Shown here in pieces: positions 26,701 to 46,941 of a stretch of DNA of 64,000 bases (position 1 is its first letter; every line of letters begins with the position of its first letter). This DNA comes from Cyanidioschyzon merolae (taxonomy: Eukaryota). The DNA lies in NCBI GenBank assembly GCA_000091205.1, contig AP006502.2. The stretch is one strand, 5' to 3'. The notes under the pieces were generated by a model. That model did not search any database, was not told the DNA's origin, and worked only from the letters and a program-made list of their open reading frames with translations. The position numbers and the translations under genes were made by a program.

Positions 26701-29700
26701 CTGAGAGGTTACAAGTTCATCCAGCCAAGGATGAATCGGGAACAAGTCAGTCGACGCTGTGGTAGGCAGCTGAATCCAGACACGTCCAGGCAACAAGAAT
26801 GCCGATGAATCGGATGCTGCTGTTGACGTTGACTTTGACTGGTGTCCTCGATATCGAGGCAGATGCCGCTGGTGGCTGGTGGCGGCTTTTGGGCGTCGCT
26901 GCTGACGCCAGCCTGCCACCTCCTGGACGGTAGCTCGACGAGCGCCTGGCACACCAGCACGGGTGCAGTCTTTCGCGTTGGCATTGGCGGCAGCGGCGGT
27001 ACTGTCGACTTGGAGCTCCTCCAGCAGCGCCATAGGAGGCGGCTCGAACGCCTCCGGCAACGCCAGCGATACCCAGTGTGCTGGTTGCCAGCAGCAGCTC
27101 GTGGGGATGCTCGTATCCTCAGCGCTGTCCGAGGCATTCCGGGCAGGGTGCTGGTGCTGGTGCTGGTGCTGGTGCTGGTCGTGAAGATTCGTTTCGCTTT
27201 CGGGAGCGCCACCTAGTGTCGCTCTTGTTGCCAAACGCTTCCTCGAGGGATCCGTTGGTGCACTTGGTGCTCCAGTCGTTGACGCTACTGCTTTTGCTGC
27301 GGATAGCGCACACTCGAGATCAAACAGTGCATCCATCCGACAGCTGCGATACACTTGACCAGGCCAGAGCAGTGTCGCTCGATCCACGAAAACAGGTTCG
27401 ATCGATGCATTCCGTATTTGCCAGGGTGCATGGAGCGTCACCAACACAAGAGGCACGCTCACCGCCTCGTTACTCGTTGGTACACGACGAATGACCTGGG
27501 CAGTGAGCAGCGCACCCCAGATGGGGTCCGGCTCCGGATTCAGGTGCCTCGCAGAGCGCGTTCGCGGACGACGACTCGGTATCGGAGACGGTGCCAATGG
27601 ACCCAACCAGAGCACTCGGGATTCGTCGTCGCGAACATTCTGGGCAAGGTCCACGAACCAGGACCACAAGTACGAGGCAGGATGCACACTCGCAACTGCA
27701 GATGCATTGCTGACGCCGTGTTCACCGGTTCGGCACACATTCGGAGCAGTCACTTGGGGGCAGGCATCGTGTTCACTGCATTGCACTTGTCGTGGTTGTT
27801 GCGCTTCACACCCGAGCATGGACGGTGCAGGTAACCTGGTGCTGCTTGCATCCACGTCTGGTACCATCGCGTCATCGTCCAGTTCCGTGCAGAGCTGCCA
27901 GACACAGGGTGTTGGTGCAAACAACGAGGCTGCTCGGATATTGGTACGCGAAGCGAAACTCGATGCTCCATTCTGGACGGCTGTTGGATTCGCAGTCGCT
28001 TCGAAACGAGCTATACAGCACGGAGTGTTACGCACGTTCGAAGTGGTGTCATGCGTCCACAGTGACAAGCAGAGTGGCGTCTGATTCTCCCAGTACAGGG
28101 GCGACTCGAAGCGGCAGAGCCACTGGGGATCTGGTGTTGCTGCTGTTTGACCAGTGGCTGTTACCTTTTCAGAAACAACGCTTTTGCGTCGATACAGAAC
28201 AACCACCAGCACCAAACAGGGCCACTGCAAGGCTTGTATCGCCACGAGCTCGAGCGCAGCGTCAGGCGCGACCCAGCTGAGGGCCTCGCTTCGCGATACA
28301 CCTCCAGAGCGATTATCCAATGGTGCATCCAATGATGATGATGATGATGATGATGTCAGAAACCGTCGCCACTCGGAGAGACGCAGCACCTGCGGATTCT
28401 GGTCCAAAGCGTGAACCGCAATGTCTTGATAGAACGATGCTCGGGGAACGTATCGCATCTCGTCGACAGCGAGCGTACCGTACGCGCTCAGGTGCAGCGG
28501 CAAGCCACTAGCATTGACAAGAGCGAGCGTACCACACTGAGGGCGAACTGGTACCACCAGTGCGGCGCGCTCTGGCCTGCCTGCCTGTATTTGCAGCGTT
28601 CGCTCCACAGCAGCAGCGATTCGAGGCGTAATGTTCAAGCACAAGGCGTCGGTGCTGCTCAGGCGCAGCAGTGTCTGGCGGGCGGGCAGCGTAGACGCCT
28701 CGTGTGACCCACAACAGGCATCAGCAGCAATGCCGTTGCTGTTGTCGTTGTCGTTGTCGTTGTCGTTGTTCACAGCAGCTGTCTGTCGTTCTAGTTGCTG
28801 CAATTGCAGTTGCAATCGTGCCGGCTCCAGAACGAGCTCATCAGTGAGGAACGCTCGGCAGGAGCCCTGCACCTGGAGCCAAAGCGCTGTCCATGGAATG
28901 ACATGTTGCAGGACGCGAACTGAGAGGTTATCGATTTGCAGCGACCACTGCAAGCTGCTTGTCGCGTATGCACCAGCGCTAGCACCAGCACCAGCACCAG
29001 CATCGACAGGAATAGAAACAGCTGCTCCGGCAACGTGCATGGTAAGGGTAACAAGGCGGCCGTCGACTTGATACCATCGAGGCTCACTGAGCGCGCAGGG
29101 TGCTTCATCTGACGTCGATAACGACGACAAAGAAGACGATGATGATCCAGAGGAGAACGAGTTGCGGTGCTGGCCGACTGAGGATGATGCACGACGACGC
29201 CACCAATCGTTGTTCCAGTGTATATCCAGTGTCGACCAAGAGAGGCGCTTCTCAACATGCGGATACGCACAGTTTCGAACTAGGCACTGTTGCAGATGAA
29301 GCGCACAGCCACGCAGCCACAACGCGGAAGCCGCGAGTCCCCCAGCTGGAGTCGACAGAGGCCTCGAATCCGCAGCGCGAACATCAAACGCTGAGAAGCG
29401 ATCATCATCATCATCATCATCATCATCATCTGTGCCGTTTTTGTCTGCTTGACTCGATAAAGCGCTGATCGAGTCGTGCTGCCCTGTGCTTGCATCTCGA
29501 TACCTCGTCTGGCAATGGTAGTGCCGGTGATTCATCGGGGGTATTTGCGGCCTGCTTCGCCAGCGTCCCTGCTCATCGATGTAGCTCGCTAGACTGGAAG
29601 CCGTTGCTACCAGTGAGGCCACCACGAGATCACGCGGATACGCCTGTTCGTAGCCGGGGACGCGGTACCACTTGGGACGATCCCAGAATACAGCCTTACC

Positions 29701-32700
29701 GCTGAAGCAGAGCCCGACAACCAGCGTTCGATCAGCGGTACGACGCTCGACATCAATGCTTGCTTCTGATCCAGAGGATGTGCTCGTACTACTACTGTTG
29801 TCGCTACTGTTGTCTTGCGTCTGGTCGTCAAGGTTGAGCGGGATGAGAAGCAGCGAGGGTGCAGCACCTGCCTCGAGGTGCAGTTGCCAGCTGATGGCCC
29901 CCGCTTCATGAGTGATCGCAACATCGCCCTCGCGTGATGACTCCGGGGCGGCAACCGCGTCACTAGAAACCGACTGCTGATGCTGTTGCTGGTGTACCTC
30001 GTTCGTCTCGTCGATGGACGATTTGGAATCGCTCGTGTCGTTCGGATCTTGAACCGTGGGGATGGGCGCTCTTATCTCTGCAGCTGACGCTGTCGAATCA
30101 TCGGTGCCATCTGCTGCACGAAACTCCTGCCAGATGCGCTTCAACAGGGCGAGTTCGAGAAAAACGCGCGCATCTTGGAGTCGAATCTGCACTCGAGCCT
30201 GAGTTGATGCCTCAGTTGCAGCGCTCGTGTCGTTCCAGTACCGGACTCGAAGGCAGGGCAACATCACCAATTCACCCTGAGCACCGAGGTAGTGACTGCG
30301 CTCTGTGCGGAGGCGCACCGCTTGTGCTTGGAACCGAAGCGCTTCAGAGCGTCCACAATACCGATACTGGAGCGTTAACTTGGAGGCAGCGAGATCAGCG
30401 AGAGCCAGTTCATCGATGCTCGCTGGATGATCCTGTTGGTCCAGATACTGACCTGGATTACGCAACGATGACGATGACGGTGCTTGTTCGCCTGGTGTTC
30501 TGCTTGCGGATGCGTCGGTTTTGCTAGTGTGGTGTTGCGGCCACAAGGTGAAGAAGAAACGCTCCAGGTGCAACTGGGTGCTGCCCTGGGGTACGCCCGC
30601 GACTGTGCTGTTTGCGGCTTGTGCATTACGGGCGACGGATGCTCCGCCACCGTCTTCGGTGAACGTCATCGTCATTGCAGGCTCGCTAGCACTCGCACTA
30701 TGTTGCGTCAGGGTATCCCTAGTGCTACGATATTTCGTAGCGTTCGTGCTAGCGCTCGTGCTTGTCATCACTGGAGGTTTGGAGCTCGGCACCTGACACG
30801 TCTCGTATTGCTCCAGCTGATACTGATACACGGCGTCTTCAAGTCGACGGATCCAGTCTAGGACGTCATTCAGGAGCGCAAGGTCGTGGACTGTTCCAAG
30901 CGCGTGCACCGTCGGAACCCGAATGAAGGTTGCGGCTTTGTCGCGCTGCCAACAGAGGACCCAGTCGACTTGATTGGTCAGCGCCTTCTCCTTGTCGTTG
31001 CTCCCAGTGAGACGCCACAACTGCGACTCTTGGATGCGTAGTCGACAGACGCAATCCATGAGATTGGGAGTTTCGATTTCGCCTACCTCGAGGACAAGCG
31101 TTGCTGGTAATGTTGCAGCCTGCATGTGCAACTGAACGTCCTGGATGTGAAGCTCGACGAAGACGACGTACGCATCCTTCTTCGCTGGCGCATGTGGAGG
31201 CAGCTTATCTTCAAGCAACGCTGTTGATGCTGGCTGCTTTGTCGCGGTGCGCGCCTCTTGGTCGACGGGGCACTGCTGTCTTGCTGTCGCTGTTTGCCCT
31301 GAGCAGGGCGCTGTGTGTCCGTCAGCGCTCCCGATGGTATCAACGAGGTCGTGTGTAGAGCGCTGCATGAGCACATCGTACACGTCGAGGTGCAACAGCC
31401 ACTCGAGCTGCAACCACATGGACCAGAGCTGACGACATTTGGCCTCGTCCGCGTGGATACGCACCTTGACGATCTGGAGAGCGCATTTCGACGCAGTCGG
31501 AGCACCAGCATGCGTCGTCTGTTGCCAGTGACAGGTCAGGGCAGCGGGTCGTAGGTCGTAGGAGCGTCCAGCGTCCTCAGTGGATGATGCATTCGCCGTC
31601 CGATGATCAAGAAGCACATCACCGAAACGGAGGAGCGGTTGCGCGGTCTGATTGGTGACTTGACCTCCCTGCACAAAGCACGCGAGGTGTTGGCGGACTG
31701 CCTGGAGCTGCTCCCGATCCAGCGATGATGATGATGATGACAGGAACAACGCGTCTACGTCGTCGCATACGAGGTCGATGGCGAAAAGCGATAAGCGCCA
31801 CGTTTTTTCATCTGCTGGGGTGATCACGGGTGCGTTCGCTGCCTGAGCGGCAGCCTCAGCTCGGCGGATGTGATCCTCGACGAGTGTTTGGAGCCGGAGC
31901 CAGCTGCTCGCCGGTATCGTGGTGCACAAGGGCGCACACCAGGTGATCCAAAGCTGGAGCATTTGCACGATTTGCGCACAGATACCAGACGGGTGCCATT
32001 CCAGAGCGAGACACCCGACGCGAACGATGCCCATAGAAGAAACGGCATCTGTTTGCACACCGGAAGCGAGCACAGATGAAGCTTCTCGTCTGATGAGCGG
32101 TAACTGTGCTGTGAGGTCACTGAGCTGCACGAGCAGACAGCGCTGCGCTAGCTCGAGCGCCAAGGTTTCGGCTTCGAACACCAGACAAGCTCCGGGCGAG
32201 GCCAATGCCAGCCGCTTTCGTACCTGCAACCGCATGCGAGAAGCTTTGAGAATGCACGCTCCGGCTGCTGCGGTACCGTCGAATCCTGCCCAGTCGATGA
32301 CCAAGTGCAGACGCTGACACTGCACATCCGAACTGCCGTCCAACGATGTATCCACAGGTGGCTGCTCGGTACTCGCTGCGGACACCCAGGGGGTGCGCAT
32401 GATGCGCAACAGGCTCTCTTGAGCTTGGTATACGTATCGGAGTATTGCAACCGGCACTAGACGCACCGACACCTGGGACAGGATGACCATAGGTATGCGG
32501 GCGTGCGGATCGCGAGCACCATCAACAGCGACTAGTTGTGAACGCGAGTGCCCTGCCCAGTACCAAGCAGTCAGCAAAAATGGCTCTTCGGAAGCGAACA
32601 GTGTCATTTCCGTGGGGGCGCTCGCGTCCAGCTGCTCGATCGGCAGCGTAGTGCAGCAAGCAGACCAGTGACCGGTGCCAGTATGCACTTGTAGACCTGC

Positions 32701-34830
32701 CAGACAGGGCGCTGCTTGCTCCTCTCGATGATGTGACTTCAATGGAGCGGCTGCTTGCGGTCGCTCCTGCTCTCGATAAACCCGACAGGCAACCGCGATG
32801 GCATCCTGGCCGGTTGCAGTTGCGTTGGCGATGCTAGCGCTGTCGAGTGCAAGCGCGTCAACGGGATCGACCCAGGGCACCCGGATTCCGTGCAACTCGA
32901 GTGAGAGCCTCCCAGACGTCTCATGGATCAGCTCAACGTGCAGTCTATCTACCTCGACAACCGCGACTATGCGAGTTCGTTTCGGGAACGCCGCGTGCTC
33001 GCCTCGCGTTGCAGCGGCTGCGGCTGCAGGTTGCGTATCCGACACAGAGAAGCGTTGAACTGAGGCGCTTAGCTGGGGTTCCATCACCACGTTTCCCGCG
33101 TTGCTGTTGCTAACGTTTCTGTCGTTCGTGTTGCCTTGATGGCGATGCAGAAGCAGCGCATCACTTAGCTGCAGGTCTATAGCGGCAATCGCAGCGCTCA
33201 GCTGCTGGCAAACGAAAGCGTCAGCCGTATTTTCCGCTAGTATTGCGCGTGTTCTCGCTGTCTCGGGAGCCGAGAGCACCCAGGACCCCGCTGTAGTCAA
33301 CGTCGACGGCTCGGGAGCGTCCTCCTGGGTACCGGAGAGCATGCCCGAAAGCCAGTGCAAACGCAATGCTACCAGCTGTGTGCTGGTCGGGCGAAGCGTC
33401 AACCGGAGGGATGCCAGCGGAGTGCTCGTTTTGCTACTCGAGGCGGTTGCCACTTGCAGATCGTTCACTGCTGGCCTTGTGCTGGGATGCAGCTCGAGCG
33501 TCAACGATGCAAGTGTCAGGCATGCTGTGGTCAGTTTGTTTCTCCAAAATTGCAGCTCAACATTCCACGTTTCCGTACGCAAACCAATAGAAAGCGGTGG
33601 CCAATCGTTCAGCAGCGAGACGTACTCGGTAAGCCACTTCGTGTCGATCTGGAGTGCTTCCAGCTGTCCAGCACAGGCGACTTGGAGCGCTCTGTGTTCG
33701 AATGCTCGCCAGAAAGGCACCCAAGGCACGGAGAGATTCGCTTTCGCTTCCGTTGTTTCAGGGCTGATGCAGTAGTTACCATGCAATGCTGCTTCTCCTG
33801 CTTCTGCTTCCGCTGATGGCGTTGCGGTGCCTTGGCGTTGGGGTTGTGCAGCGAGCAGCGCCGCTAGCGGCCGCAGACCACCAGGGATACGGATCTGCAA
33901 CGGTGATATCTGGAACCATATTCGGATGATGTTGCCAGCATAGGCGTTCATTAAGAGCATAACTCGGAGGTAGAGAGGTTTCACTACGATCTGATCTTTC
34001 CAGCGCAATGCCAAGGCGTCCAGATGGAGGCACTTGCATATCGTACCATCGAGGCGGAGCCAGTGAAGAAACTGTTCGGGTGATGGCGCCTTATCTTCCA
34101 GTTTCATGGCGTCGAGAAACCGAATGGCCTCGCTCTCGTTCGCGGGACTAAAGAGCATCAAGCGTTCCCATGTGATCCAAAAGGCACCAGCATCCAATGT
34201 TGGATCTGTTTTCGCTCTCTGTTCACCGGACGTGTCAAGCAACCCCGGCAAGTGGATAGATACGGTGCAATGCGTTACGTCGATTCGAAAGCTGCAAGCG
34301 TAGACACCTAGCCGCTCCAGCAAGTACCAGGCAATGGAGGCAGCTGCCCGCTGAGAGGAACGTCCCGTGGCACGCTGCTGAGCCGCTCTCAACGCAGACG
34401 AAGCCGTTTCAGCGTCTGGGTGCCTTGGCGTGCTTTCCCCAGTTTGCTCGGAGTTTGGAGCGTATCCAGCATTCGATGCAGTGCAGTGCGTTGTGCCCGT
34501 TTCACTGCTTGAGGCAGTCTCGACAGATGTGCGTTCGTACCGGAGCTCCAGGAATACCTCATCCAGCACCAACGCAAAGCTCTTTCGCCAAGAATGAAGC
34601 CACGGAAGCGACAGCGTGATCTGACCTATCTGGCCACCGCTTAGTTCCAGACGTCCCGTAGTGACACCCGTGTTCGCCGGGTACAGGGTTTGCGGCAGCA
34701 GCGTCGCTCGGTGCAAGTTGAGGAAGCCGCGTCTCAGACTCCACGCAACTTGCTCCGGTGCCAACTGTTCAAGGTACTGGTTCAGCCATTTTTGCAAGGT
34801 GCGCACGATGAAGCCTTCTCGCATAGCCAA
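20710..34830 (-). CDS. VPS13: VPS13-like bridge-like lipid-transfer protein, 4706 aa, in a single exon
   Basis: N-terminal chorein-N domain: MAMREGFIVRTLQKWLNQYLEQLAPEQVAWSLRRGFLNLHRATLLPQTL..GRLELSGGQIGQITLSLPWLHSWRKSFALVLDEVFLELRYE. Giant size and repetitive internal architecture are consistent with VPS13. Many low-complexity inserts (polyS, polyD, HQ repeats, polyQ) are encoded by in-frame microsatellites. The overlapping ORFs 20058..20879 and 20693..21454 on the same strand are regarded as spurious. Confidence 0.8.
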   Translation of the reverse strand: MAMREGFIVRTLQKWLNQYLEQLAPEQVAWSLRRGFLNLHRATLLPQTLYPANTGVTTGRLELSGGQIGQITLSLPWLHSWRKSFALVLDEVFLELRYERTSVETASSSETGTTHCTASNAGYAPNSEQTGESTPRHPDAETASSALRAAQQRATGRSSQRAAASIAWYLLERLGVYACSFRIDVTHCTVSIHLPGLLDTSGEQRAKTDPTLDAGAFWITWERLMLFSPANESEAIRFLDAMKLEDKAPSPEQFLHWLRLDGTICKCLHLDALALRWKDQIVVKPLYLRVMLLMNAYAGNIIRIWFQISPLQIRIPGGLRPLAALLAAQPQRQGTATPSAEAEAGEAALHGNYCISPETTEAKANLSVPWVPFWRAFEHRALQVACAGQLEALQIDTKWLTEYVSLLNDWPPLSIGLRTETWNVELQFWRNKLTTACLTLASLTLELHPSTRPAVNDLQVATASSSKTSTPLASLRLTLRPTSTQLVALRLHWLSGMLSGTQEDAPEPSTLTTAGSWVLSAPETARTRAILAENTADAFVCQQLSAAIAAIDLQLSDALLLHRHQGNTNDRNVSNSNAGNVVMEPQLSASVQRFSVSDTQPAAAAAATRGEHAAFPKRTRIVAVVEVDRLHVELIHETSGRLSLELHGIRVPWVDPVDALALDSASIANATATGQDAIAVACRVYREQERPQAAAPLKSHHREEQAAPCLAGLQVHTGTGHWSACCTTLPIEQLDASAPTEMTLFASEEPFLLTAWYWAGHSRSQLVAVDGARDPHARIPMVILSQVSVRLVPVAILRYVYQAQESLLRIMRTPWVSAASTEQPPVDTSLDGSSDVQCQRLHLVIDWAGFDGTAAAGACILKASRMRLQVRKRLALASPGACLVFEAETLALELAQRCLLVQLSDLTAQLPLIRREASSVLASGVQTDAVSSMGIVRVGCLALEWHPSGICAQIVQMLQLWITWCAPLCTTIPASSWLRLQTLVEDHIRRAEAAAQAANAPVITPADEKTWRLSLFAIDLVCDDVDALFLSSSSSSLDREQLQAVRQHLACFVQGGQVTNQTAQPLLRFGDVLLDHRTANASSTEDAGRSYDLRPAALTCHWQQTTHAGAPTASKCALQIVKVRIHADEAKCRQLWSMWLQLEWLLHLDVYDVLMQRSTHDLVDTIGSADGHTAPCSGQTATARQQCPVDQEARTATKQPASTALLEDKLPPHAPAKKDAYVVFVELHIQDVQLHMQAATLPATLVLEVGEIETPNLMDCVCRLRIQESQLWRLTGSNDKEKALTNQVDWVLCWQRDKAATFIRVPTVHALGTVHDLALLNDVLDWIRRLEDAVYQYQLEQYETCQVPSSKPPVMTSTSASTNATKYRSTRDTLTQHSASASEPAMTMTFTEDGGGASVARNAQAANSTVAGVPQGSTQLHLERFFFTLWPQHHTSKTDASASRTPGEQAPSSSSLRNPGQYLDQQDHPASIDELALADLAASKLTLQYRYCGRSEALRFQAQAVRLRTERSHYLGAQGELVMLPCLRVRYWNDTSAATEASTQARVQIRLQDARVFLELALLKRIWQEFRAADGTDDSTASAAEIRAPIPTVQDPNDTSDSKSSIDETNEVHQQQHQQSVSSDAVAAPESSREGDVAITHEAGAISWQLHLEAGAAPSLLLIPLNLDDQTQDNSSDNSSSTSTSSGSEASIDVERRTADRTLVVGLCFSGKAVFWDRPKWYRVPGYEQAYPRDLVVASLVATASSLASYIDEQGRWRSRPQIPPMNHRHYHCQTRYRDASTGQHDSISALSSQADKNGTDDDDDDDDDDRFSAFDVRAADSRPLSTPAGGLAASALWLRGCALHLQQCLVRNCAYPHVEKRLSWSTLDIHWNNDWWRRRASSSVGQHRNSFSSGSSSSSLSSLSTSDEAPCALSEPRWYQVDGRLVTLTMHVAGAAVSIPVDAGAGAGASAGAYATSSLQWSLQIDNLSVRVLQHVIPWTALWLQVQGSCRAFLTDELVLEPARLQLQLQQLERQTAAVNNDNDNDNDNSNGIAADACCGSHEASTLPARQTLLRLSSTDALCLNITPRIAAAVERTLQIQAGRPERAALVVPVRPQCGTLALVNASGLPLHLSAYGTLAVDEMRYVPRASFYQDIAVHALDQNPQVLRLSEWRRFLTSSSSSSSLDAPLDNRSGGVSRSEALSWVAPDAALELVAIQALQWPCLVLVVVLYRRKSVVSEKVTATGQTAATPDPQWLCRFESPLYWENQTPLCLSLWTHDTTSNVRNTPCCIARFEATANPTAVQNGASSFASRTNIRAASLFAPTPCVWQLCTELDDDAMVPDVDASSTRLPAPSMLGCEAQQPRQVQCSEHDACPQVTAPNVCRTGEHGVSNASAVASVHPASYLWSWFVDLAQNVRDDESRVLWLGPLAPSPIPSRRPRTRSARHLNPEPDPIWGALLTAQVIRRVPTSNEAVSVPLVLVTLHAPWQIRNASIEPVFVDRATLLWPGQVYRSCRMDALFDLECALSAAKAVASTTGAPSAPTDPSRKRLATRATLGGAPESETNLHDQHQHQHQHQHPARNASDSAEDTSIPTSCCWQPAHWVSLALPEAFEPPPMALLEELQVDSTAAAANANAKDCTRAGVPGARRATVQEVAGWRQQRRPKAATSHQRHLPRYRGHQSKSTSTAASDSSAFLLPGRVWIQLPTTASTDLFPIHPWLDELVTSQTEAVVASDRGALALSSQVCRSLAIRDRSPHRTANEPNAAAAAAEAAEAAAAEAATIHADAIEHECDDYRRRVVYDAPRWLAPWPWKPAETMSPLGTCFAVDFGWEHPRALRQITLCVPELWCSLWTASPTTLMQAIPAERRSWCSQLRRHLANWIDTGRPGVQSDLETVQAEQATATAAPQTPIQSVAYPCSSSSSSSSSSSMPLTCRECAPPRPISAHTTGAFDAFENARYGRLPYQARGGGHNGGPVCGQVLPLTLAPCPWTAWSLPELALSWRTAHTEWSAWCAGTRLAHEALVISLYAVAGERKPHRWTRAMLASPAAVLQQPSAWQRLASAHGADRAPTQAAVTVADAVVHVAATGTPEVKTSPLRLVRSRHASVSTPLETDARWPWLVSSSLAAAPAAAAATTPHSRLSQVSRSIAPRFSAWSPAAAVAETWPSSSSSTPTTFDGAYVPRPRQLDAVVCVQPLGYPLERSRLLVVYPRYRLVNLWPAYTLLVWPVDQDTGDECLSFGAANPRAGTHSPGSDLDLVDVRPTAANDIDRLLADGSVFRLEPGAMATLHWPAGTNKPCLRIRIAAPGWYWSGRVPVTAGSDWCLRLRQASTGACQFPRVHTAAGTSPVTPVHLVTILPPHPLLVPYRIRNQTIERIRFAQRLEPAHCRSGCCMKQTQDVIDDDALQALDPLSECAYTWDEPLAEPILELWIDGIGYVGAFRLEPELHSHASVAAVHGETQVATDSGVSGDRTNGRSRHRGYHDGKRTGQAVQLRVIPRLQQCRTRLWQLVGLGCRRRRHRRRRVHVASQTAVHLVCNQSVRWCVANSAGAPGAASRSRTFQIRLQRCQATLALIIAENEQQQEQPAVPRRSSQSRGASTSLQRSVDERHDVSTETSPSETPLDALPASTTMHYAGAGIDRHASAFTCELCVPEMGISLLRMTTTTREPPLFEQVVYLGIRGVDARWHHVKRTQDGSDMLRQKASLDESYHGEVAFVCEALQLDHSSALQHPTLPGAWCVPLRLHSVAANDAASRTSRALSLASDHERHSKKKKKKKSSIRPDHNTSRQLDRLAVVSWFSLRRRPVSYACQGSASAPGASSLSASVASRRWTSDDGAWRAPKQAACVLRTRFESSSTGAHTFLRIHSGQVRCGRLDLDIDASLVVQMVDWFVAWRRQVDAMTPVETSADALRMASVGAEQQDQELEIFWTPSMGLVAATSAQRLTQARARSSSSRRAGAAARILRDGNAPASRYCWTCRSGDTSSSRSSLSSMPLSRSLRESLTQCTARRESDCSCCQYDAGANEALGSSAAQYRAGADACQLLRRALEQALLRGVPSVSQVQQRSERSLRLAFHDVVCAPLACTLSVRTDLVSLGTLLQYRGSEWPRLTALMLTPLMNVQDASLWLRELVLDGTFETSDDLVQHLVRHYQQQLNREVWKVISSAEWLGNPARYARHLSRLVRQIARQLGALLRQRHRHRILGAAAALSLGYGAGLGAASLDAFHRMIALAAGTLRQHIGLATLALDIAARMPGAAHNRSIPDANSGAARFLERRVQVSGTGGASHGHQHQQRYSKTDAVVPGSPAERASSSKVERLRRRWRWRWWWHAAAGQRMGILLATPLLFMMQATATVLAIARDLLDQAAWHLIESAAGETAWTWSVAEWSAPLRPPRMPSTKLDHSYDIEDAVLGYELWQMLDQASSSELLSEQYRFCCRPVPNEAVLCTNRRLWHLRLPTNGPFSVNRSSCSWQVLDELQWSDVIMLWLMPPGYDKLHVLALAPEQVMPQIRCPCVLNLKQRQHPVRADTAAQATLTKESRCWRCFWRRVYWFIQRWVPASADDLVLRLKMLPRRTSRGWRLLTIPLTSAVVANAVADRLQTVWYVALCRSRSPCSRVVVMERWWLPQLRLDQSGPREQAECPEAPWRVQKRSKASPDSRCNTTASIIGRTDAKQAGYGESATPNAWQRCRQPHLFQGFVPVPRGWADALYAYDASVSFPLGVYFRS
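26541..26589. repeat. (CTG/CTT)n trinucleotide microsatellite inside the VPS13-like CDS
   Basis: Read directly. Other in-frame microsatellites in the same gene: (GGTGCT)5-6 at 27147..27179 (encodes HQHQHQ on the minus strand), (ATG)8 at 28333..28356, (ATC)10 at 29401..29430, and (GTC/GTT)n at ~28737..28770. Confidence 0.9.
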
Positions 34831-39007: not shown

Positions 39008-40471
39008 ATGTTTCTGTGGTTTAGTGCTCCCTTATTTACAAGAAGCAATACGGGCACGCGGTGGATACCTGTAGGCAAACACCCGCTCGCCTGGGAACAG
39101 GCACGAGTGTGGCGTTGTCTTCACGAGCCGGCTGTGTTGGCGCTCCGCGGCCAGGACGCTGCCGCAATGTCGAAGAAACGAGTCAGCAGCGCTTCGATGG
39201 AGCCGTTCAACGTTGAATCGCTCGTCCGGGACGAACTTCAGCGTATGGAACCCTACGCGCCGATCCTACCGTACGAAGTACTCGCGCGACAGCTCGGACG
39301 CGATCCGAGTGAAATCATCAAACTGGACGCGAACGAGAATCCTTATGGCGTTTGTCCCGCCGTGCGAAACGCAGTGGCGGCTGCACCTTTCCCGCATATT
39401 TACCCGGATCCCGAGTCACGAGAGCTGCGCGAGGCGCTGGCGGCGTTCACGGGCGTACCTGCCTCGCGACTCCTTGTGGGCCACGGTGCCGACGAGCTCA
39501 TTGACCTTATTTTTCGACTCGTGATCCGAGCGAATCATCAGGATACTGTAGTGAACGCTCCACCTACGTTCGGTATGTACCAGTTCGATGCGGACTTGAA
39601 CGCAGCCAAAGTGGTTTCGGTATGGCGAAAAGCTGACGATGGCTTTCGCTTCCCAACCGAGCAGGTGGAGGCGTACTTTGCAGAAATCGCTGCTGCACGA
39701 GAGCGAGGCGTAGACCAGTCCTACCCCAGGATTGTCTTCGTGACTTGCCCCAACAACCCCGATGGCTCCCGAATATCGGATAGCGATCTGCGACGACTTT
39801 TACGCCTACCAACCCTGGTGGTGCTCGACGAAGCCTATATTGAGTTTGCGGATAGCGAGGAGGAGCGTTACCCAGATGCATCGGGCGGCAGCGAGACGCG
39901 TGCAACGGTTACAGAGCCACCCACACGGATTCGCTGGGTTCTTGAATACCAGAATCTCATCGTTTTACGAACGTTTTCCAAATGGGCCGCCCTAGCCGGC
40001 CTGCGGGTAGGTTATGGTGCTTTCCCGGAAGCGCTTCTGCCGCATCTCTGGAAAATCAAACAGCCCTACAACGTCAATGTGGCTGGGCAGGTTGCCGCCC
40101 TGGAAGCGCTATGTCAACGAGATCTCCTGTTCCAGCAAGTTTCATGGATGAAAGCGGAACGCCAACGCCTTTACCAAATCCTTCAGGCACCGCAGTTCGC
40201 GTGGTTGCATCCATACCCATCACAGAGCAACTTTGTGCTCTGTCGAGTGCGTTCTGATGATGCGCTCTGTAATGGATCCCGAAGAAAGGTTGCCTCTGCC
40301 CGGGCCCTGCGTGATTTTCTGCGAGATCGCGGTATTCTCATTCGTTACTATGATTCGAAAGGTCTGACAGACTGTATACGAATTTCCATGGGGACACCCG
40401 CCCAGATGGATCGCCTCTACGAGGTGTTGGAAGCGTACGCTCGTGTTCTCGGATATGGAAATGAAAGATAA
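39008..40471 (+). CDS. hisC: Histidinol-phosphate aminotransferase (HisC / HPA), a PLP-dependent class-II aminotransferase with an N-terminal extension (likely organellar targeting)
   Basis: IKLDANENPYG..FPHIYPDPESRELREALA..LLVGHGADELIDLIFR..LVVLDEAYIEFAD..NLIVLRTFSKWAALAGLRVGYGAFPE (PLP-binding Lys in the SK motif). Overall length and order are typical of HisC. Confidence 0.9.
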   Translation: MFLWFSAPLFTRSNTGTRWIPVGKHPLAWEQARVWRCLHEPAVLALRGQDAAAMSKKRVSSASMEPFNVESLVRDELQRMEPYAPILPYEVLARQLGRDPSEIIKLDANENPYGVCPAVRNAVAAAPFPHIYPDPESRELREALAAFTGVPASRLLVGHGADELIDLIFRLVIRANHQDTVVNAPPTFGMYQFDADLNAAKVVSVWRKADDGFRFPTEQVEAYFAEIAAARERGVDQSYPRIVFVTCPNNPDGSRISDSDLRRLLRLPTLVVLDEAYIEFADSEEERYPDASGGSETRATVTEPPTRIRWVLEYQNLIVLRTFSKWAALAGLRVGYGAFPEALLPHLWKIKQPYNVNVAGQVAALEALCQRDLLFQQVSWMKAERQRLYQILQAPQFAWLHPYPSQSNFVLCRVRSDDALCNGSRRKVASARALRDFLRDRGILIRYYDSKGLTDCIRISMGTPAQMDRLYEVLEAYARVLGYGNER

Positions 40472-42256: not shown

Positions 42257-42736
42257 GTGAAGCAAATGGCCACAGGCACGACAGGCGCAAGAGTGCTCTC
42301 CATGGCCTCCATTCTGCGTCACAGAGCGTCGTTACCAACGCGAGCGATCGCTCGGGTGCTGCTCGAAGCCGACGGAGGTCCGATCGAGCACAACGCGCTG
42401 TGGAAGCTCGCCCGACGAGTGAAGCGTCTGGAAACGAAGGGTAACCCGGTTCACGCTACCCAAGACTCAGCGGCAACTGTCGAGGCGTCACCGGCACTCG
42501 CGGACAACGTGCGCACGACGACTCCTGCAACGCCGGTGCTCCGCAGTAAGACGCACTTTAAGAAAGTACTTTATCAGATGAAGCGCATGCAGACTGTGGA
42601 AGTGCGTGCCGAACCTTTGACGGAAGCAAGGGAGTCAACAACTCGTCGTCAATTTCTTGTTCGGCTGACTGACAAGGGCCTTCGAAAGTACACGCAAGAA
42701 CTCGATACCTTATACAAGAACCAAATCCTAGAGTAA
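42257..42736 (+). CDS. Hypothetical small basic protein (159 aa), possibly an organellar ribosomal or accessory protein. Speculative.
   Basis: Only isolated ORF of this size in the 40.5-43.1 kb intergenic interval. Lys/Arg-rich C-terminal half (THFKKVLYQMKRMQTVEVRAEP..RRQFLVRLTDKGLRKY). No family recognised. Confidence 0.25.
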   Translation: MKQMATGTTGARVLSMASILRHRASLPTRAIARVLLEADGGPIEHNALWKLARRVKRLETKGNPVHATQDSAATVEASPALADNVRTTTPATPVLRSKTHFKKVLYQMKRMQTVEVRAEPLTEARESTTRRQFLVRLTDKGLRKYTQELDTLYKNQILE

Positions 42737-43088: not shown

Positions 43089-45023
43089 CTATTTACCAAC
43101 GGTTGCTGTGGATGCTGCACCCGTATGGCGTTGATGGAAAAGCAGGCGAAGGAGTGCTCTGGTTAGCAGATGTGGGTCGTGACCTGGAGGTTTGCTGGTG
43201 GAAAGCATCGCACCCGAGGCCGCAGACTCCTCGCTCGGCGCCCGTAAGCGATCCACTTGAAAGGATACACCTGAGTGCGCTTCTATGATTAGTGATTCAG
43301 TCGCTGCTGCTGCTGCTGCTGATGATGATGATGATGACGAAGACGACGACGGCAACAACGAGACGAGTACAGGGTGCGTCTGTGATGATTTTGTTGCAAC
43401 GGAAACCTCTCGATGCTGGGGCTCAACGAGCGACGCCTCTACGGCATGCGACTGAACCTGGGAGACGTCGATGAGCACCTGCAGGGGTATCCTTGACGCG
43501 GGTTGTTCAAACTCGGATTCCTCAGCATCCAGGATGGCTCGCAGCGCATCCACATGAGCCCAAACATCCATCCCGTCCGTCTCTCCTGGTTCTGTCCACA
43601 AATTACAGACATAGATTGGACGTTTGGGTGATCTGGGATCTACGCTACTCCACTTTCGAATAGCGTCTCGAATTGGCGTGATCGCCGCAACGGCTGCAAT
43701 GCTGGTAAATAACGAGCCAGGTCCCAGAATGATCGCATCCGCAGTACGAATGGCCTCGAGGGCCTCTGGGCAGGCGCTTGGCTCGCCTCGGGTGTCGTCA
43801 TTCGTCGATGCAGTGGTACCATTGGCGGCTGCAGTGCGCTCCACGTGCACTTGGAACAAACGCCCTGGAGAGCGCGCAAAGTTGCTTTCTCCGCGAATGG
43901 TTTCGCAAACAGGCTTGGATCCGCTGTGTCTAGGATTAGAGCCCGGCGAAGACGCTTTGGATCCCACCAGCTCAAGCAGATCATCGGATGCAGGCCATAT
44001 GCGACAGCGCTCGACGGGAATCCCCAGCAGGTGGCAGAAAGCCTGCACAGCACGCGAGCAACGCCGTCCGCAACTTTCGTAGAGCGCAGCCAACACCAAG
44101 TTCCCGAGTGCATGGCCAGTCAAGGCCTGCTCGCCGTTTGTTTCGACCCTGATGGAACCGGTGCCCAGGCGATGGCCCAGCAAACGCCACCAGGCGATAT
44201 CCTCCGCAGTCGACGATGCGTTTGCATCAGCCGCAGAATCGTAACGCTCGCTACCACTTACCTCAGCGTTACATCGTGCGCTGAGCGCTAGTGCCGAGCA
44301 GACTCCTTCCAATGCATTGCGAATATCACCCATAGCAGGCATACCGAGCTCAGCGCGAATGCGACCAGTGCTACCGCCGTCATCCGAGGTGCAGATCACC
44401 GCTGTAATATCCAACGGCATATGGACTTGCGACCAGTACACGAGACCATGGAGAAGGCGATGCATTCCTGTACCGCCGCCCAGGAGGACCAGACGTGGTG
44501 GTTTTCGTGTCGCTCCTGCATGATCCATTTGACATAGCAGAGCGCTGCCTATGCTGCGACGATATCGAGCTTTCCGCGGAGAACGCAGTGACGTATGCGT
44601 CCGCGTAGATAGCCTCCCCCTTGCGCCTAGTCGCGGCTCGCAGGCAACAGAAGCTCCACTGATGGTCCCATGCTTGAGCATCAGCATGGCTGGAGCGTTT
44701 CTTCTCCAAACTGTCCATTCCGATACGAAGCAGGGGTTGCAGTGCCGGCGCCTGTGCGGCACTCGCGGAGACTCCAGACGTGGCGAGCGACTCGCGTCAC
44801 TACCGAACACCGAAACAAGAGCTGTCTGGAAGACGTACGCGCGACCCGTCGCCTCACTGCTTGGTTTCAGGTTCATTTTATGCACAGCAAACTCGTGGAA
44901 GCAAACATACCGGTGAGGTTGCGCTGCGTCAACCTGCAACGATCCGGGCGGTGCAAGTGCACCGCGTGCTCTGCTGACCCCGTTGGCACCTTTCTCTCGC
45001 CCTGTTCGCACTGATGCGAGCAT
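43089..45023 (-). CDS. YvcK/CofD-family protein (UPF0052; gluconeogenesis-factor / 2-phospho-L-lactate-transferase fold) with ~170-aa N-terminal and ~110-aa C-terminal extensions
   Basis: LVLLGGGTGMHRLLHGL..DITAVICTSDDGGSTGRIRAELGMPAMGDIRNALE..TGHALGNLVLAALYE..ADAIILGPGSLFTSIAAV..PIYVCNLWTEPGETDG. Order and spacing match bacterial YvcK. C-terminal polyS/polyA from (GCT)7(GAT)6 at 43303..43338. Confidence 0.8.
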   Translation of the reverse strand: MLASVRTGREKGANGVSRARGALAPPGSLQVDAAQPHRYVCFHEFAVHKMNLKPSSEATGRAYVFQTALVSVFGSDASRSPRLESPRVPHRRRHCNPCFVSEWTVWRRNAPAMLMLKHGTISGASVACEPRLGARGRLSTRTHTSLRSPRKARYRRSIGSALLCQMDHAGATRKPPRLVLLGGGTGMHRLLHGLVYWSQVHMPLDITAVICTSDDGGSTGRIRAELGMPAMGDIRNALEGVCSALALSARCNAEVSGSERYDSAADANASSTAEDIAWWRLLGHRLGTGSIRVETNGEQALTGHALGNLVLAALYESCGRRCSRAVQAFCHLLGIPVERCRIWPASDDLLELVGSKASSPGSNPRHSGSKPVCETIRGESNFARSPGRLFQVHVERTAAANGTTASTNDDTRGEPSACPEALEAIRTADAIILGPGSLFTSIAAVAAITPIRDAIRKWSSVDPRSPKRPIYVCNLWTEPGETDGMDVWAHVDALRAILDAEESEFEQPASRIPLQVLIDVSQVQSHAVEASLVEPQHREVSVATKSSQTHPVLVSLLPSSSSSSSSSSAAAAAATESLIIEAHSGVSFQVDRLRAPSEESAASGAMLSTSKPPGHDPHLLTRALLRLLFHQRHTGAASTATVGK

Positions 45024-45651
45024 CTTCGGGTATATGCCTGATCAGGCACACGATATCAGGTACAGCACGGAGATTGCTTCACATGCACACACACACACAC
45101 AAACTGGAGCCTGCGCACCCGAGGCAAAGCCGACGAACCCACCAGCTAACGCTCCTCGGATAACAACACGTGCTGAAGCGGGCTCGCTCGCTGAGTCTTG
45201 CCAACCAATGCGCACGCGATTCTGTTGGAACACCACTCCGCACGGACCAGTCTGGTACGGAATAGTGGACGCTCCCGCGGGTGCCGCTGACAAGCGCCCA
45301 GGCGAGGTTCACTGGTTCGCGTAAAAGCGATTCTGCGTCCCGCAAAACAAACCGAAAAGAAAGGACAGAACACCACACTGCTTCAGAAAGAGCCTTCAGT
45401 GACGAACCATGCTGGAAGCACGCTCTTCATAATAACTGATGAATCATAAAAAGCGCCTTAAAGCTAACGATACACGGAGACAAACAGGTATGGGGGTCGG
45501 ACGCTCAGCCGGCGCCCTCGACGGGGGGCCACCACCACCACCACCACCCCCAAAGCCTCCGGTGGTGTGCTCAAAACGCACTCTCTTTCGTGCCAGAGCG
45601 CATAACCGGTAGCACCTAAGCGCGTACCCTCCAAGAGATGGTCAAGTTTTC

Positions 45652-46941
45652 ATGAATATTTTGGCTGGGGTACTCTGGGTTCTGGGTTCTGGCTTCAAAG
45701 CTCTTCTTTTGTGCAGCGTCTTGGCACTGAGCCTCGCTTTCTGCAGCGCTGCGCTCTATGTTAGCCATCGGATAGCGTTCCCCCCGTGGCACGATCCTCG
45801 CCCTGGATCGTCAAGTTTAACCCAAAAGCGGATGCCAGAGGCCTGGGCTGGTTTCACACTTGATCCCTATACCTCGCTGGGTCTCCAGTTTGAGTCGGTC
45901 GCGTTCCGGAGTCGCTCTGGCAGATGGCTCCGAGGCTGGTGGGTACCCGCTCCCGTTGAGCCGCCAGCACCCATAGGCGTCGTCTGCGTCCACGGTGGTG
46001 GCAGGGACCGACGTGCATTCATGCGGCAGAGCGTACTCTTTCATCGGAGAGGGTGGTCAGTCTTACTTTTTGATTGCACGGGACACGGTACTTCTGATGC
46101 ACGTCACCGATTTCCTTTGGGTGCTTGGCCAGGAGCGGCTATCACCTACGGAACGCTGGAGTGGAGTGACGTCATTGATGCGCTACGCTACACGTATGAG
46201 CGTATACGAGAGCAGGCTCAAAGAAGCGCTGCTGCTTCCTCTGTGCGTATTCGCGTGGCACTCGTGGGCACCAGTCAAGGTGCCGTGAGTGCTGCATACG
46301 CCGCTGCCTACCTGACGAGGCGCTTCGAGCAGGGTGACGGCGCAGCTTGTCCACCTGTGGATGTGCTGGTTCTCGAGAATCCGTTCACGAGTCCATTAGC
46401 ACTGTTTGCCCATCTGGCCAGTCACGTGGCGATGCCAGTGGCTCGCTACGGATCTCGTTGGTGCTTCCTTCGCCATGTGGTCCGTTTTTGGGTCATGACC
46501 TGCACCACATTAGCGCTCTTCCGAACGGGAAATGTAGCCTTGACGTGTCGTATGCTGGCAAAAGCATGCGAGCGAGAAGGTCAACCTTACAGGTGTGCGT
46601 GGTGGCAAGGCATCGCTACCCTCGGGCAGCTGTTATCGGTATCGTTGTCGTTGTCGTCGTCGTCGTCGTCGTCGTCTCGAGAGACGCCTCCAGCTGGCGG
46701 TTTCGATTCTGTGGCGGAGGCAGTTCAGGCGTTGAAGTGCCCAGTTTTCTTTATGCATGGAATGAAAGATTGGATCGTACCGTACAAGCATTCAGTACAG
46801 CTCTATAAGGCAGCTAATGAGCCGAAAGAGCTCTGGCTGAGTGCTGAAGCGGGTCACACGATGATGTATCACTGTGAGCCGGATACCTTTGAAACGCGAG
46901 TTTGTGGTTTTATGGAGAGGTACTTGAGGGGATCGATGTGA
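45652..46941 (+). CDS. Alpha/beta-hydrolase-fold protein with an N-terminal transmembrane anchor (ABHD/BEM46-like or S9-like)
   Basis: Hydrophobic N-terminus ILAGVLWVLGSGFKALLLCSVLALSLAF. Core VCVHGGGRDRR..GWSVLLFDCTGHGTSD. Nucleophile elbow GTSQG (GxSxG). C-terminal AEAGHTMMYH (catalytic His). PolyS insert from (GTC)n at ~46640..46680. Confidence 0.6.
   Translation: MNILAGVLWVLGSGFKALLLCSVLALSLAFCSAALYVSHRIAFPPWHDPRPGSSSLTQKRMPEAWAGFTLDPYTSLGLQFESVAFRSRSGRWLRGWWVPAPVEPPAPIGVVCVHGGGRDRRAFMRQSVLFHRRGWSVLLFDCTGHGTSDARHRFPLGAWPGAAITYGTLEWSDVIDALRYTYERIREQAQRSAAASSVRIRVALVGTSQGAVSAAYAAAYLTRRFEQGDGAACPPVDVLVLENPFTSPLALFAHLASHVAMPVARYGSRWCFLRHVVRFWVMTCTTLALFRTGNVALTCRMLAKACEREGQPYRCAWWQGIATLGQLLSVSLSLSSSSSSSSRETPPAGGFDSVAEAVQALKCPVFFMHGMKDWIVPYKHSVQLYKAANEPKELWLSAEAGHTMMYHCEPDTFETRVCGFMERYLRGSM

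Follow-up and report, generated by a model that had tools for sequence, protein, structure and literature searches.

A YvcK/GlmR-type protein of probable bacterial origin with a presequence-like N-terminal extension in Cyanidioschyzon merolae and its relatives

YvcK/GlmR proteins are widespread, and they are important in cell-envelope homeostasis and virulence of Gram-positive bacteria. YvcK of Bacillus subtilis binds UDP-Glc and UDP-GlcNAc, through residues equivalent to B. halodurans T13, N217, Y264 and R300, and the substitutions Y265A and R301A nearly abolish UDP-GlcNAc binding (PMC5482804). In two further reports, GlmR is described as stimulating GlmS under the control of UDP-GlcNAc (PMC7525490, PMC6171935). 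GlmR of Listeria, Staphylococcus and Bacillus has in addition been described as an accessory uridyltransferase that needs D40, D41 and N198 (PMC10128056). Here we analyse a gene of this type in Cyanidioschyzon merolae, a hot-spring red alga, located in a 64,000-nucleotide stretch of contig AP006502.2 (the window, to which all positions refer).

43089..45023, minus strand: longest open reading frame (ORF), 644 aa, stop codon included in the coordinates

An exact-sequence look-up shows that the encoded protein is identical to BAM83378.1 / XP_005539414.1 / UniProt M1VMN8 of C. merolae 10D. BAM83378.1 is annotated as 'hypothetical protein, conserved', and M1VMN8 carries the automatic name 'Gluconeogenesis factor'; the family is already known, and the gene is in public databases under an automatic family name. 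A preliminary description of this DNA, made from the sequence alone, had quoted a series of core motifs, all of which are present in the translation. The gene is intronless and sits on a 1,621,617-bp chromosome, with a GC content in and around it of 0.54–0.58, the same as in the rest of the window, and it is flanked by eukaryotic genes (RING, WD40, VPS13 and aminotransferase). The eukaryotic chromosome, the eukaryotic neighbours and the identity to BAM83378.1 show that the ORF is not a bacterial contaminant, which had been held unlikely before. Literature searches by accession number, by CofD with Cyanidioschyzon and by YNL011C/UPF0052 returned no paper that discusses the gene.

Within the CofD fold, sequence profiles and the predicted structure assign the protein to the YvcK/GlmR type, and not to CofD/FbiA. 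The Pfam CofD model (PF01933) matches residues 179–539 with 173.3 bits (cutoff 30, E=8.4e-51), in accordance with the membership proposed earlier. The best solved relatives by sequence are the UPF0052/YvcK structures 2ppv, 2hzb and 2o2z (E~1e-26 at best), and the matches to 2ppv, 2hzb, 2o2z, 2p0y and 2q7x span E=1e-15 to 1e-26. We also built an AlphaFold2 (AF2) model from a 97-sequence alignment, and its predicted local confidence (pLDDT) exceeds 90 through most of the core. Foldseek aligns the AF2 core with B. halodurans YvcK (BH3568; 2hzb_A/2o2z_A) at E~1e-24 and a target-normalised template-modelling (TM) score of 0.84–0.86, and with CofD/FbiA at a TM score of only ~0.5–0.58. The best structural matches are therefore YvcK proteins, and the unrelated Rossmann-fold family against which the preliminary description had cautioned does not appear. 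Pfam, the solved YvcK structures and Foldseek agree on a member of the YvcK/CofD family.

The top NCBIfam model is TIGR01826 (YvcK, UDP-GlcNAc-binding). Its native match reaches 160 bits, below its own cutoff of 196, and is broken into two stretches in the red-algal proteins; the three other orthologues score 162–172 bits, likewise below the cutoff. We removed all C. merolae residues in alignment columns filled by fewer than 20% of ~390 bacterial relatives, leaving 323 residues, and this artificial, insertion-deleted core scores 252.8 bits over profile positions 2–308 of 310. Because the insertion-deleted core passes end to end, the native shortfall reflects insertions and not membership of another family. 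Two further models remain far below their cutoffs: TIGR04357 (GAK-system CofD-like; 59.7 bits, cutoff 340) and TIGR01819 (F420_cofD; 32.7 bits, cutoff 257). We regard the family identity and the functionality of the gene as nearly certain.

Alignments with the nine best bacterial matches, and later with ~390 relatives, define the following elements.

43116..44498, minus strand: YvcK/GlmR-type CofD-fold domain, residues 176–636 (PF01933, AF2, Foldseek, TIGR01826), broken by lineage-specific insertions
44466..44480, minus strand: GGGTG nucleotide loop, residues 182–186; T185 aligns with B. halodurans T13 / B. subtilis T14
44361..44384, minus strand: DDGGSTGR, residues 214–221; D214/D215 align with Listeria monocytogenes GlmR D40/D41
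44184..44271, minus strand: largest N-lobe insertion, residues 251–280, in red-algal orthologues only, partly helical in the AF2 model
44100..44117, minus strand: GHALGN, residues 303–308; H304 and N308 are invariant in all relatives
43701..43724, minus strand: GPGSLFTS, residues 434–441, from the alignment
43578..43604, minus strand: NLWTEPGET, residues 474–482; N474 aligns with B. halodurans N217 / B. subtilis N218
43191..43526, minus strand: C-terminal-lobe insertion zone, residues ~500–611, which holds the poly-Ser/poly-Ala tract
43290-43352, minus strand: poly-Ser/poly-Ala tract, codons ~558–578, inside the C-terminal-lobe insertion zone (Tandem Repeats Finder, TRF, 43303-43337)
43140..43184, minus strand: conserved terminal helix GHDPHLLTRALLRLL, residues 614–628; H615 is near-invariant and G614 replaces Arg

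The first fold element, PRLVLLGGG, starts at residue 176, and the core motifs follow in the family order, with GGGTG, the DD of DDGGS, GHxxGN, GPGS and the N of N..T.PGET all kept. Specifically, D214, D215, S218, R223, D233, H304, N308, S437, S441, N474 and E481 are the universal or near-universal residues among the ~390 relatives. Lineage-specific insertions totalling ~150 aa are placed on this fold at residues 201–204, 251–280, 290–296, 362–374, 396–413 and 456–462, none of which had been mentioned before, and most extensively at ~500–611. The last of these had been described as a ~110-aa low-complexity C-terminus; since the chain afterwards rejoins the terminal helix of the family, this low-complexity part is an internal insertion zone and not a C-terminal extension. 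The C. merolae helix reads GHDPHLLTRALLRL where bacteria have the consensus RHDPxxLARAI, H615 is kept in nearly all of the ~390 aligned relatives, and the helix is modelled with a pLDDT of 85–93.

The poly-Ser/poly-Ala tract carries in-frame indels of 3–9 nt and several substitutions among near-identical environmental strains (L005–L007), and is a coding microsatellite hotspot within an otherwise nearly invariant gene.

The residues to which functions have been assigned in bacteria are related to the C. merolae protein by alignment as follows.

B. halodurans T13: T185, kept
B. halodurans N217: N474, kept
L. monocytogenes D40/D41: D214/D215, kept
L. monocytogenes N198: V445, four residues after GPGSLFTS, replaced
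B. subtilis R301 / B. halodurans R300: G614 in three species and Ala in Cyanidium, replaced
B. subtilis Y265: probably Ser/Ala, replaced, with uncertain alignment in an insertion-rich region

The suggested check of the nucleotide-binding residues thus gives a mixed result: T185, N474 and D214/D215 are kept, and the equivalents of R301, N198 and probably Y265 are replaced. With its cleft conserved, the protein has probably kept a nucleotide or nucleotide-sugar chemistry. To our knowledge, the C. merolae host has no peptidoglycan pathway for YvcK to serve. Since the sensor residues R301 and probably Y265 are replaced and that pathway is lacking, the ligand or the regulatory logic is likely to differ from that of Bacillus.

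The part of the longest ORF that precedes the fold is ~165–175 aa long.

44529..45023, minus strand: N-terminal extension, residues 1–165, basic, acid-poor and disordered
45021-45023, minus strand: candidate start codon M1 of C. merolae
44874-44876, minus strand: candidate start codon M50
44685-44687, minus strand: candidate start codon M113
44526-44528, minus strand: candidate start codon M166, at the boundary between extension and fold (core Met)
44721..44735, minus strand: Phe motif P97-C-F99-V-S101, from a four-way MAFFT alignment
44827-44841, minus strand: second Phe candidate A62-Y-V-F65-Q, 16 residues after M50

Sequence comparison suggests that the N-terminal extension is translated. 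The frame is open upstream of the core Met for 172 codons in C. merolae (shuffle P 0.0018), for 164 codons in Cyanidiococcus yangmingshanensis (L004; shuffle P 0.00065) and for 167 codons in the P0003 organism (L001–L003; shuffle P 0.0013). The three results are near-independent, because the extensions are too diverged for BLAST alignment. Furthermore, KAK4534638.1 (500 aa), the orthologue from Cyanidium caldarium, lacks any Met between M1 and the GGGTG strand, which means that the 85 residues of its extension have to be translated. Among four near-identical strains, the 498 nt of the extension carry four substitutions and no indels, the 700 nt of upstream spacer ~20 substitutions and five indel events, and the ~1150 nt of the core one substitution. 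Between species, the core diverges less than the extension, with proportions of nonsynonymous differences (pN) of 0.27–0.35 and 0.49–0.60, respectively.

A ratio of nonsynonymous to synonymous rates (dN/dS) is uninformative for the extension: synonymous sites are saturated between species (pS 0.71–0.81), and the near-identical strains have too few substitutions. A conserved antisense gene holding the extension open was ruled out, the antisense ORFs being without cross-species similarity. The stretch at ~44807-45085, which reaches from codon 72 to a point 62 nt upstream of the annotated ATG, is fully invariant in the four strains, and may mark a promoter, a 5′ untranslated region or the true translation start region; the four substitutions of the extension fall in its next part, and the ~20 substitutions and five indels in the remainder of the upstream spacer.

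In composition, the extension resembles an import presequence. In C. merolae, it has a net charge of +21 over 174 aa, 5% D+E (12% in the core) and 16% S+T, and most of residues 1–170 have a pLDDT below 50, that is, they are predicted to be disordered; across the four species, the net charge is +9 to +21, D+E 3–8% and S+T 16–25%. In addition, a Phe motif of the form P-x-F-[VLM] is aligned in all four species (NPCFVSE in C. merolae, APLLFMQT in Cyanidiococcus, IPCFLCS in the P0003 organism and PALFLSAP in Cyanidium), and each species has a Met 15–21 residues before a Phe, the pair in C. merolae being M50/F65. A Phe is characteristic of rhodophyte transit peptides (PMC9407449) and is required by a 'primitive' import apparatus (PMC2222254). 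A mitochondrial presequence fits the composition of the extension equally well. On balance, sequence and predicted disorder lead us to read the extension as an organelle import presequence, with the plastid slightly favoured over the mitochondrion as the putative destination. The ~170 presequence-like N-terminal residues of the preliminary description are thus most likely real, and their length depends on which Met (M1, M50, M113/115 or M166) is used.

The public gene models are inconsistent in their start codon across species, with lengths of 644, 626, 466 and 464 aa. The core Met lies at the boundary between extension and fold in three of the four species (MDHAG, MQDE, MQDS), and the position is Leu in Cyanidium. 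Its conservation leaves room for a second, cytosolic isoform; alternative initiation at this Met (44526-44528 and its equivalents in L001 and L004) could permit dual localisation.

The distribution of the gene is narrow. When 1.84 billion (1.84e9) cluster representatives were searched exhaustively by HMMER with a profile of three red-algal sequences, the orthogroup scores 838–911 bits. The next match, at 133 bits, is a truncated C. caldarium model; at full length, this protein shares 41% identity with the core of the window protein and has the same insertions. The remaining matches form a flat series at 108–133 bits of proteins of bacterial YvcK size; 20 of these and of the nearest tree neighbours were looked up and, apart from Cyanidium, the few with names are bacterial. 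A word-indexed search with a four-sequence profile listed no protein of eukaryotic source besides the orthogroup, and no eukaryote outside the Cyanidiaceae appeared among the matches with a name or source tag, so that the link to fungal YNL011C-like proteins suggested earlier found no support. By these searches, orthologues would be confined to Cyanidioschyzon, Cyanidiococcus, the P0003 organism and Cyanidium, whose four proteins are 41–55% identical to one another.

The P0003 protein is the YvcK of L001–L003 (JGI 3300039285, 3300051397; NCBI GCA_041825655.1); these are contigs from hot-spring metagenomes, up to 233 kb long, of a third Cyanidioschyzon/Cyanidiococcus-like lineage. The P0003 protein is 52–55% identical to the C. 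merolae protein, and its nearest relative is Cyanidiococcus (Kimura distance 0.25–0.33). A metagenome scan returned only three near-identical C. merolae-like loci.

We analysed the origin of the gene in neighbour-joining (NJ) trees on 286–321 conserved columns, including 77 taxonomically labelled bacterial genes from GTDB genomes. The red-algal clade is monophyletic in 200 of 200 replicates, and in 99 of 100 with Cyanidium included. Its sister is Actinobacteria in 25–53% of replicates and otherwise metagenome-assembled genome (MAG) sequences, Acidobacteriota or Chloroflexi, and no donor clade is supported. Cyanobacteria are never its sister (0 of 300 replicates), and as a positive control in the same tree, Cyanobacteria and Melainabacteria are cleanly recovered as one clade; the clades of Chloroflexi, Deinococcota and Bacilli are clean too. 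Group hidden Markov models (HMMs) score the red-algal cores in the order Actinobacteria (206 bits), Chloroflexi (183), other Bacillota (168), Bacilli (160), Deinococcota (145), Cyanobacteria (143) and Melainabacteria (123).

These data point to one transfer event, in which the gene passed from a non-cyanobacterial bacterium to the ancestor of Cyanidium and the Cyanidioschyzon/Cyanidiococcus lineage; we consider this probable on the sequences at hand. One ancient bacterial transfer is likelier than inheritance from the plastid because the distribution is restricted and the red-algal proteins never group with Cyanobacteria. Of the 'endosymbiotic or HGT origin' proposed earlier, the prokaryotic origin is supported and horizontal gene transfer (HGT) fits better; the endosymbiotic part is not borne out by the trees. 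The phylogeny that had been called for with bacterial homologues, here by NJ, places the clade outside Cyanobacteria and yields no supported donor. Actinobacteria were not accepted as the donor despite the top group HMM, as they have GPGSW and NL(V/A)PQPGET where the red algae have GPGSL and NLWTEPGET. Naming a donor from the nearest bacterial matches also failed, the nearest being MAG and metagenome proteins. Since the motif details are not specifically actinobacterial and the distances are nearly flat, we name no donor.

Taken as a whole, a functional, domesticated nuclear YvcK/GlmR gene of bacterial origin whose product is imported into an organelle is, in our judgement, the best explanation, with the odds modestly on its side. 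The shared ancestor of Cyanidium, Cyanidioschyzon and Cyanidiococcus would have obtained a bacterial yvcK in a single event. During domestication, the gene would have acquired a host-like composition, a place in a eukaryotic synteny block and ~150 aa of insertions, and gained a fast-evolving, basic, acid-poor and disordered N-terminal extension of 85–170 aa with a conserved Phe motif, which would direct import into the organelle. In the mature protein, GGGTG, DDGGSTGR, GHxxGN, GPGSxxTS and N..T.PGET make up the conserved cleft, which would be the binding site of a nucleotide or nucleotide-sugar. The protein might then act either as a small-scale nucleotidyl- or phospho-transferase, like the accessory UDP-GlcNAc uridyltransferase activity of Listeria GlmR, or as a metabolite-controlled regulator of sugar-nucleotide supply. 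Such a specific role, an imported nucleotide-sugar-binding transferase or regulator, is drawn by analogy and is tentative, possible rather than probable. More speculative still, and a reading to which we give little credence, is that YvcK has been recruited to a peptidoglycan-free red-algal organelle, most plausibly the plastid, where it would make or gauge another nucleotide-sugar pool, possibly with a cytosolic isoform besides; one candidate pool is stromal UDP-glucose/UDP-galactose for sulfolipid and galactolipid synthesis.

Several observations weigh against this explanation or parts of it. Absence from Galdieria and other eukaryotes is read from ranked database output and not from a direct genome search. 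The phylogeny is distance-based only, with a long red-algal branch; the mean distances from the red clade to all phyla are nearly flat (1.05–1.35), and the grouping with Actinobacteria may be long-branch attraction. The Cyanidiococcus model KAK4529303 (466 aa) and the metagenome (JGI) calls (464 aa) start at the core Met. The distance between the Phe and the nearest Met is 15–21 residues (in C. merolae, 48 for F99), more than in classical transit peptides. The classical Phe position in transit peptides of red algae and glaucophytes is ~2–6. A literature search found no expression, proteomic or localisation data for the window gene, and the biochemical activity of the family itself is disputed among GlmS regulation, UDP-sugar binding and uridyl transfer.

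Two alternatives concern what the gene is. It could stem from an old transfer and now be decaying, as a relic or pseudogene, or it could be contamination of the assembly, as its many insertions, low-complexity tracts, very divergent sequence and native NCBIfam scores under the family cutoff might suggest. However, the ORFs are intact in four species and several environmental strains, the checked core motif residues match the family-wide residue, pN is lower in the core than in the extension, the strain indels in the repeat tract stay in frame, the flanking genes on the 1.6-Mb chromosome are eukaryotic, and the GC content matches the surroundings; the idea is largely refuted, and we hold it to be highly improbable. 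Just as improbable is a true CofD/FbiA enzyme, that is, a 2-phospho-L-lactate transferase in an algal deazaflavin (F420/Fo) pathway. The Pfam family does carry the name CofD, and enzymes of the superfamily catalyse phosphodiester transfer, the donor being nucleotide-activated, but TIGR01819 gives 32.7 of the 257 bits needed where the YvcK model gives 160 (native) and 253 (insertion-deleted), and the fold is much closer to YvcK by TM score.

The other two alternatives concern where the protein acts and where it came from, and we rate both as unlikely, though less so than the preceding pair. A cytosolic YvcK-like protein would start at M166, the upstream 165 codons being a 5′ leader that is open by chance, and would act in the cytosol, for example in the eukaryotic GFAT/UDP-GlcNAc or UDP-glucose pathways. 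The Met exactly at the boundary in C. merolae, Cyanidiococcus and the P0003 organism, the newer NCBI and JGI models that begin there, the failure of the extensions to align by BLAST and the fact that all four strain-level substitutions in the extension are nonsynonymous would suit such a start. They are set against a frame open for 164–172 codons in three diverged species (shuffle P ~0.001 each), the Leu at the boundary in Cyanidium with its necessarily translated 85 residues, the lack of strain indels in the extension compared with five in the spacer, and the basic, acid-poor composition and aligned Phe motif in all four species. Endosymbiotic gene transfer would instead derive the gene from the long-form yvcK of the plastid ancestor, with loss of the membrane anchor, retargeting to the plastid, accelerated evolution and loss of the gene from all other Archaeplastida than the Cyanidiaceae. 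Cyanobacteria universally carry a YvcK homologue that is among the good matches (31–34% identity), an extension that resembles a presequence and has a Phe motif would be in keeping with a plastid protein, and near-equal distances to all phyla make for a weak signal. Yet the red clade is neither sister to nor inside Cyanobacteria/Melainabacteria in any of the 300 replicates, the cyanobacterial group HMM is among the lowest (143 bits, compared with 206 for Actinobacteria and 183 for Chloroflexi), the red-algal proteins are without the cyanobacterial N-terminal 'RWLxPGxxVKRW' membrane module, and, with no orthologue detected in another alga or plant, many independent losses would be needed.

The surroundings of the gene are conserved as a synteny block in all four species: WD40, RING, alpha/beta hydrolase, YvcK, a small ORF, aminotransferase and VPS13.

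45652..46941, plus strand: alpha/beta hydrolase (Hydrolase_4 / Abhydrolase_1), 429 aa, a syntenic neighbour and not part of the YvcK unit
45024..45651, no strand: spacer between YvcK and hydrolase, 628 bp, with (CA)8 at 45086-45101 and (CCA)8 at 45529-45552
20710-34830, minus strand: 4706-aa ORF where related loci have VPS13 (identity by synteny only)
39008-40471, plus strand: 487-aa ORF at the aminotransferase (Aminotran_1_2) position (identity by synteny only)
42257-42736, plus strand: 159-aa ORF whose counterpart elsewhere is a small conserved ORF of 156–173 aa without a Pfam match (identity by synteny only)

The preliminary description had presented the gene as divergently paired with the hydrolase 630 bp away. 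The divergent ORF is real, at 628 bp, and what is seen is conserved synteny with a eukaryotic-type gene. Specifically, the hydrolase adjoins YvcK in all four species, in tandem in Cyanidium and divergently in the other three. Its relatives outside the Cyanidiaceae are eukaryotic (Diplonema papillatum, Stygamoeba, Fonticula alba, EukProt transcriptomes and ankyrin-fused protist proteins), and none of 80 bacterial yvcK loci has a hydrolase homologue within 3 kb. Co-transfer and functional pairing were ruled out on these grounds together with the different orientation in Cyanidium, and the adjacency is inherited synteny with no sign of a functional unit. The hydrolase (45652-46941 in the window; 6441-7748 in L088) has a hydrophobic N-terminus and a poly-Ser tract of its own (TRF 46642-46676), and strain indels lie at or near both spacer microsatellites, (CA)8 and (CCA)8.

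The restriction to Cyanidiaceae, the single origin and the translated presequence-like extension appear not to have been described before, and the same appears to hold for the recognition of the C-terminus as internal insertions and for the replaced UDP-GlcNAc-binding residues. C. merolae is wall-less and genetically tractable. A conserved, domesticated copy in a host without peptidoglycan can serve as an orthogonal system for studying the function of the catalytic cleft. If the recruitment to an organelle is true, the family would have its first eukaryotic, organellar role, and the lack of a cell wall would make this a natural experiment on the action of the protein; the gene would be of more interest still with organellar localisation and a role outside the cell wall shown. 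If organellar import is confirmed, it would provide an example of a transferred gene that gained a presequence.

Bacterial-derived genes are a recognised feature of Cyanidiales. The HGT genes of Rossoni et al. 2019 (PMC6629376) are, like the window gene, bacterial-type, present in part of the Cyanidiophyceae, intronless and host-like in composition. The window gene differs in its presequence-like extension, most discussed Cyanidiales HGT candidates having cytosolic or membrane functions. In the main texts of Rossoni et al. 2019 (PMC6629376) and Cho et al. 2023, the family is absent under any name searched. The gene is a further candidate for the set of bacterial genes that became fixed early in Cyanidiaceae, one not taken up in those main texts.

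CofD/FbiA (PDB 3c3d, 6uw1; TIGR01819) has the superfamily and the general nucleotide-binding architecture in common with the window protein, and the likeness is distant (TM ~0.5–0.58; 32.7 bits, cutoff 257). Closer is the long-form, membrane-anchored YvcK of Cyanobacteria, Melainabacteria, Chloroflexi and Deinococcota (416–473 aa), which is among the best matches (30–35% identity) and has a catalytic domain colinear with the red-algal one through the RHDP helix. Its ~100-aa N-terminal module consists of 'RWLxPGxxVKRWL' and hydrophobic helices, whereas the red algae have an unrelated basic extension instead, and the red-algal clade is not nested among these proteins in the NJ trees. The long-form module also occurs in Negativicutes and some Clostridia (L016, L017, L020, L025, L027, L036, L045 and others), is absent in the studied Bacilli and Actinobacteria, and we found no description of it in the GlmR papers examined.

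Compared with L. monocytogenes GlmR (PMC10128056), the proposed catalytic Asp pair D40/D41 is kept as D214/D215, and N198 is V445 in all three Cyanidioschyzon-type proteins; at this position, most Actinobacteria have His, and some Chloroflexi and Gaiella have Val. The closest described system is YvcK of B. subtilis and B. halodurans (2hzb, 2o2z; TIGR01826), which has the same fold (TM 0.84–0.86). Relative to Bacillus YvcK, the red-algal protein adds ~150 aa of insertions and an N-terminal extension of 85–170 aa, its host is without peptidoglycan, and its locus has a eukaryotic synteny block in place of the bacterial yvcJ(rapZ)-yvcK-whiA operon. Bacillus YvcK and the red-algal protein have the motif order in common: GGGTG, DDGGS(S/T)GR, GD(I/L)R, GHxxGN, GPGSxxTS, N..T.PGET and the terminal HD helix.

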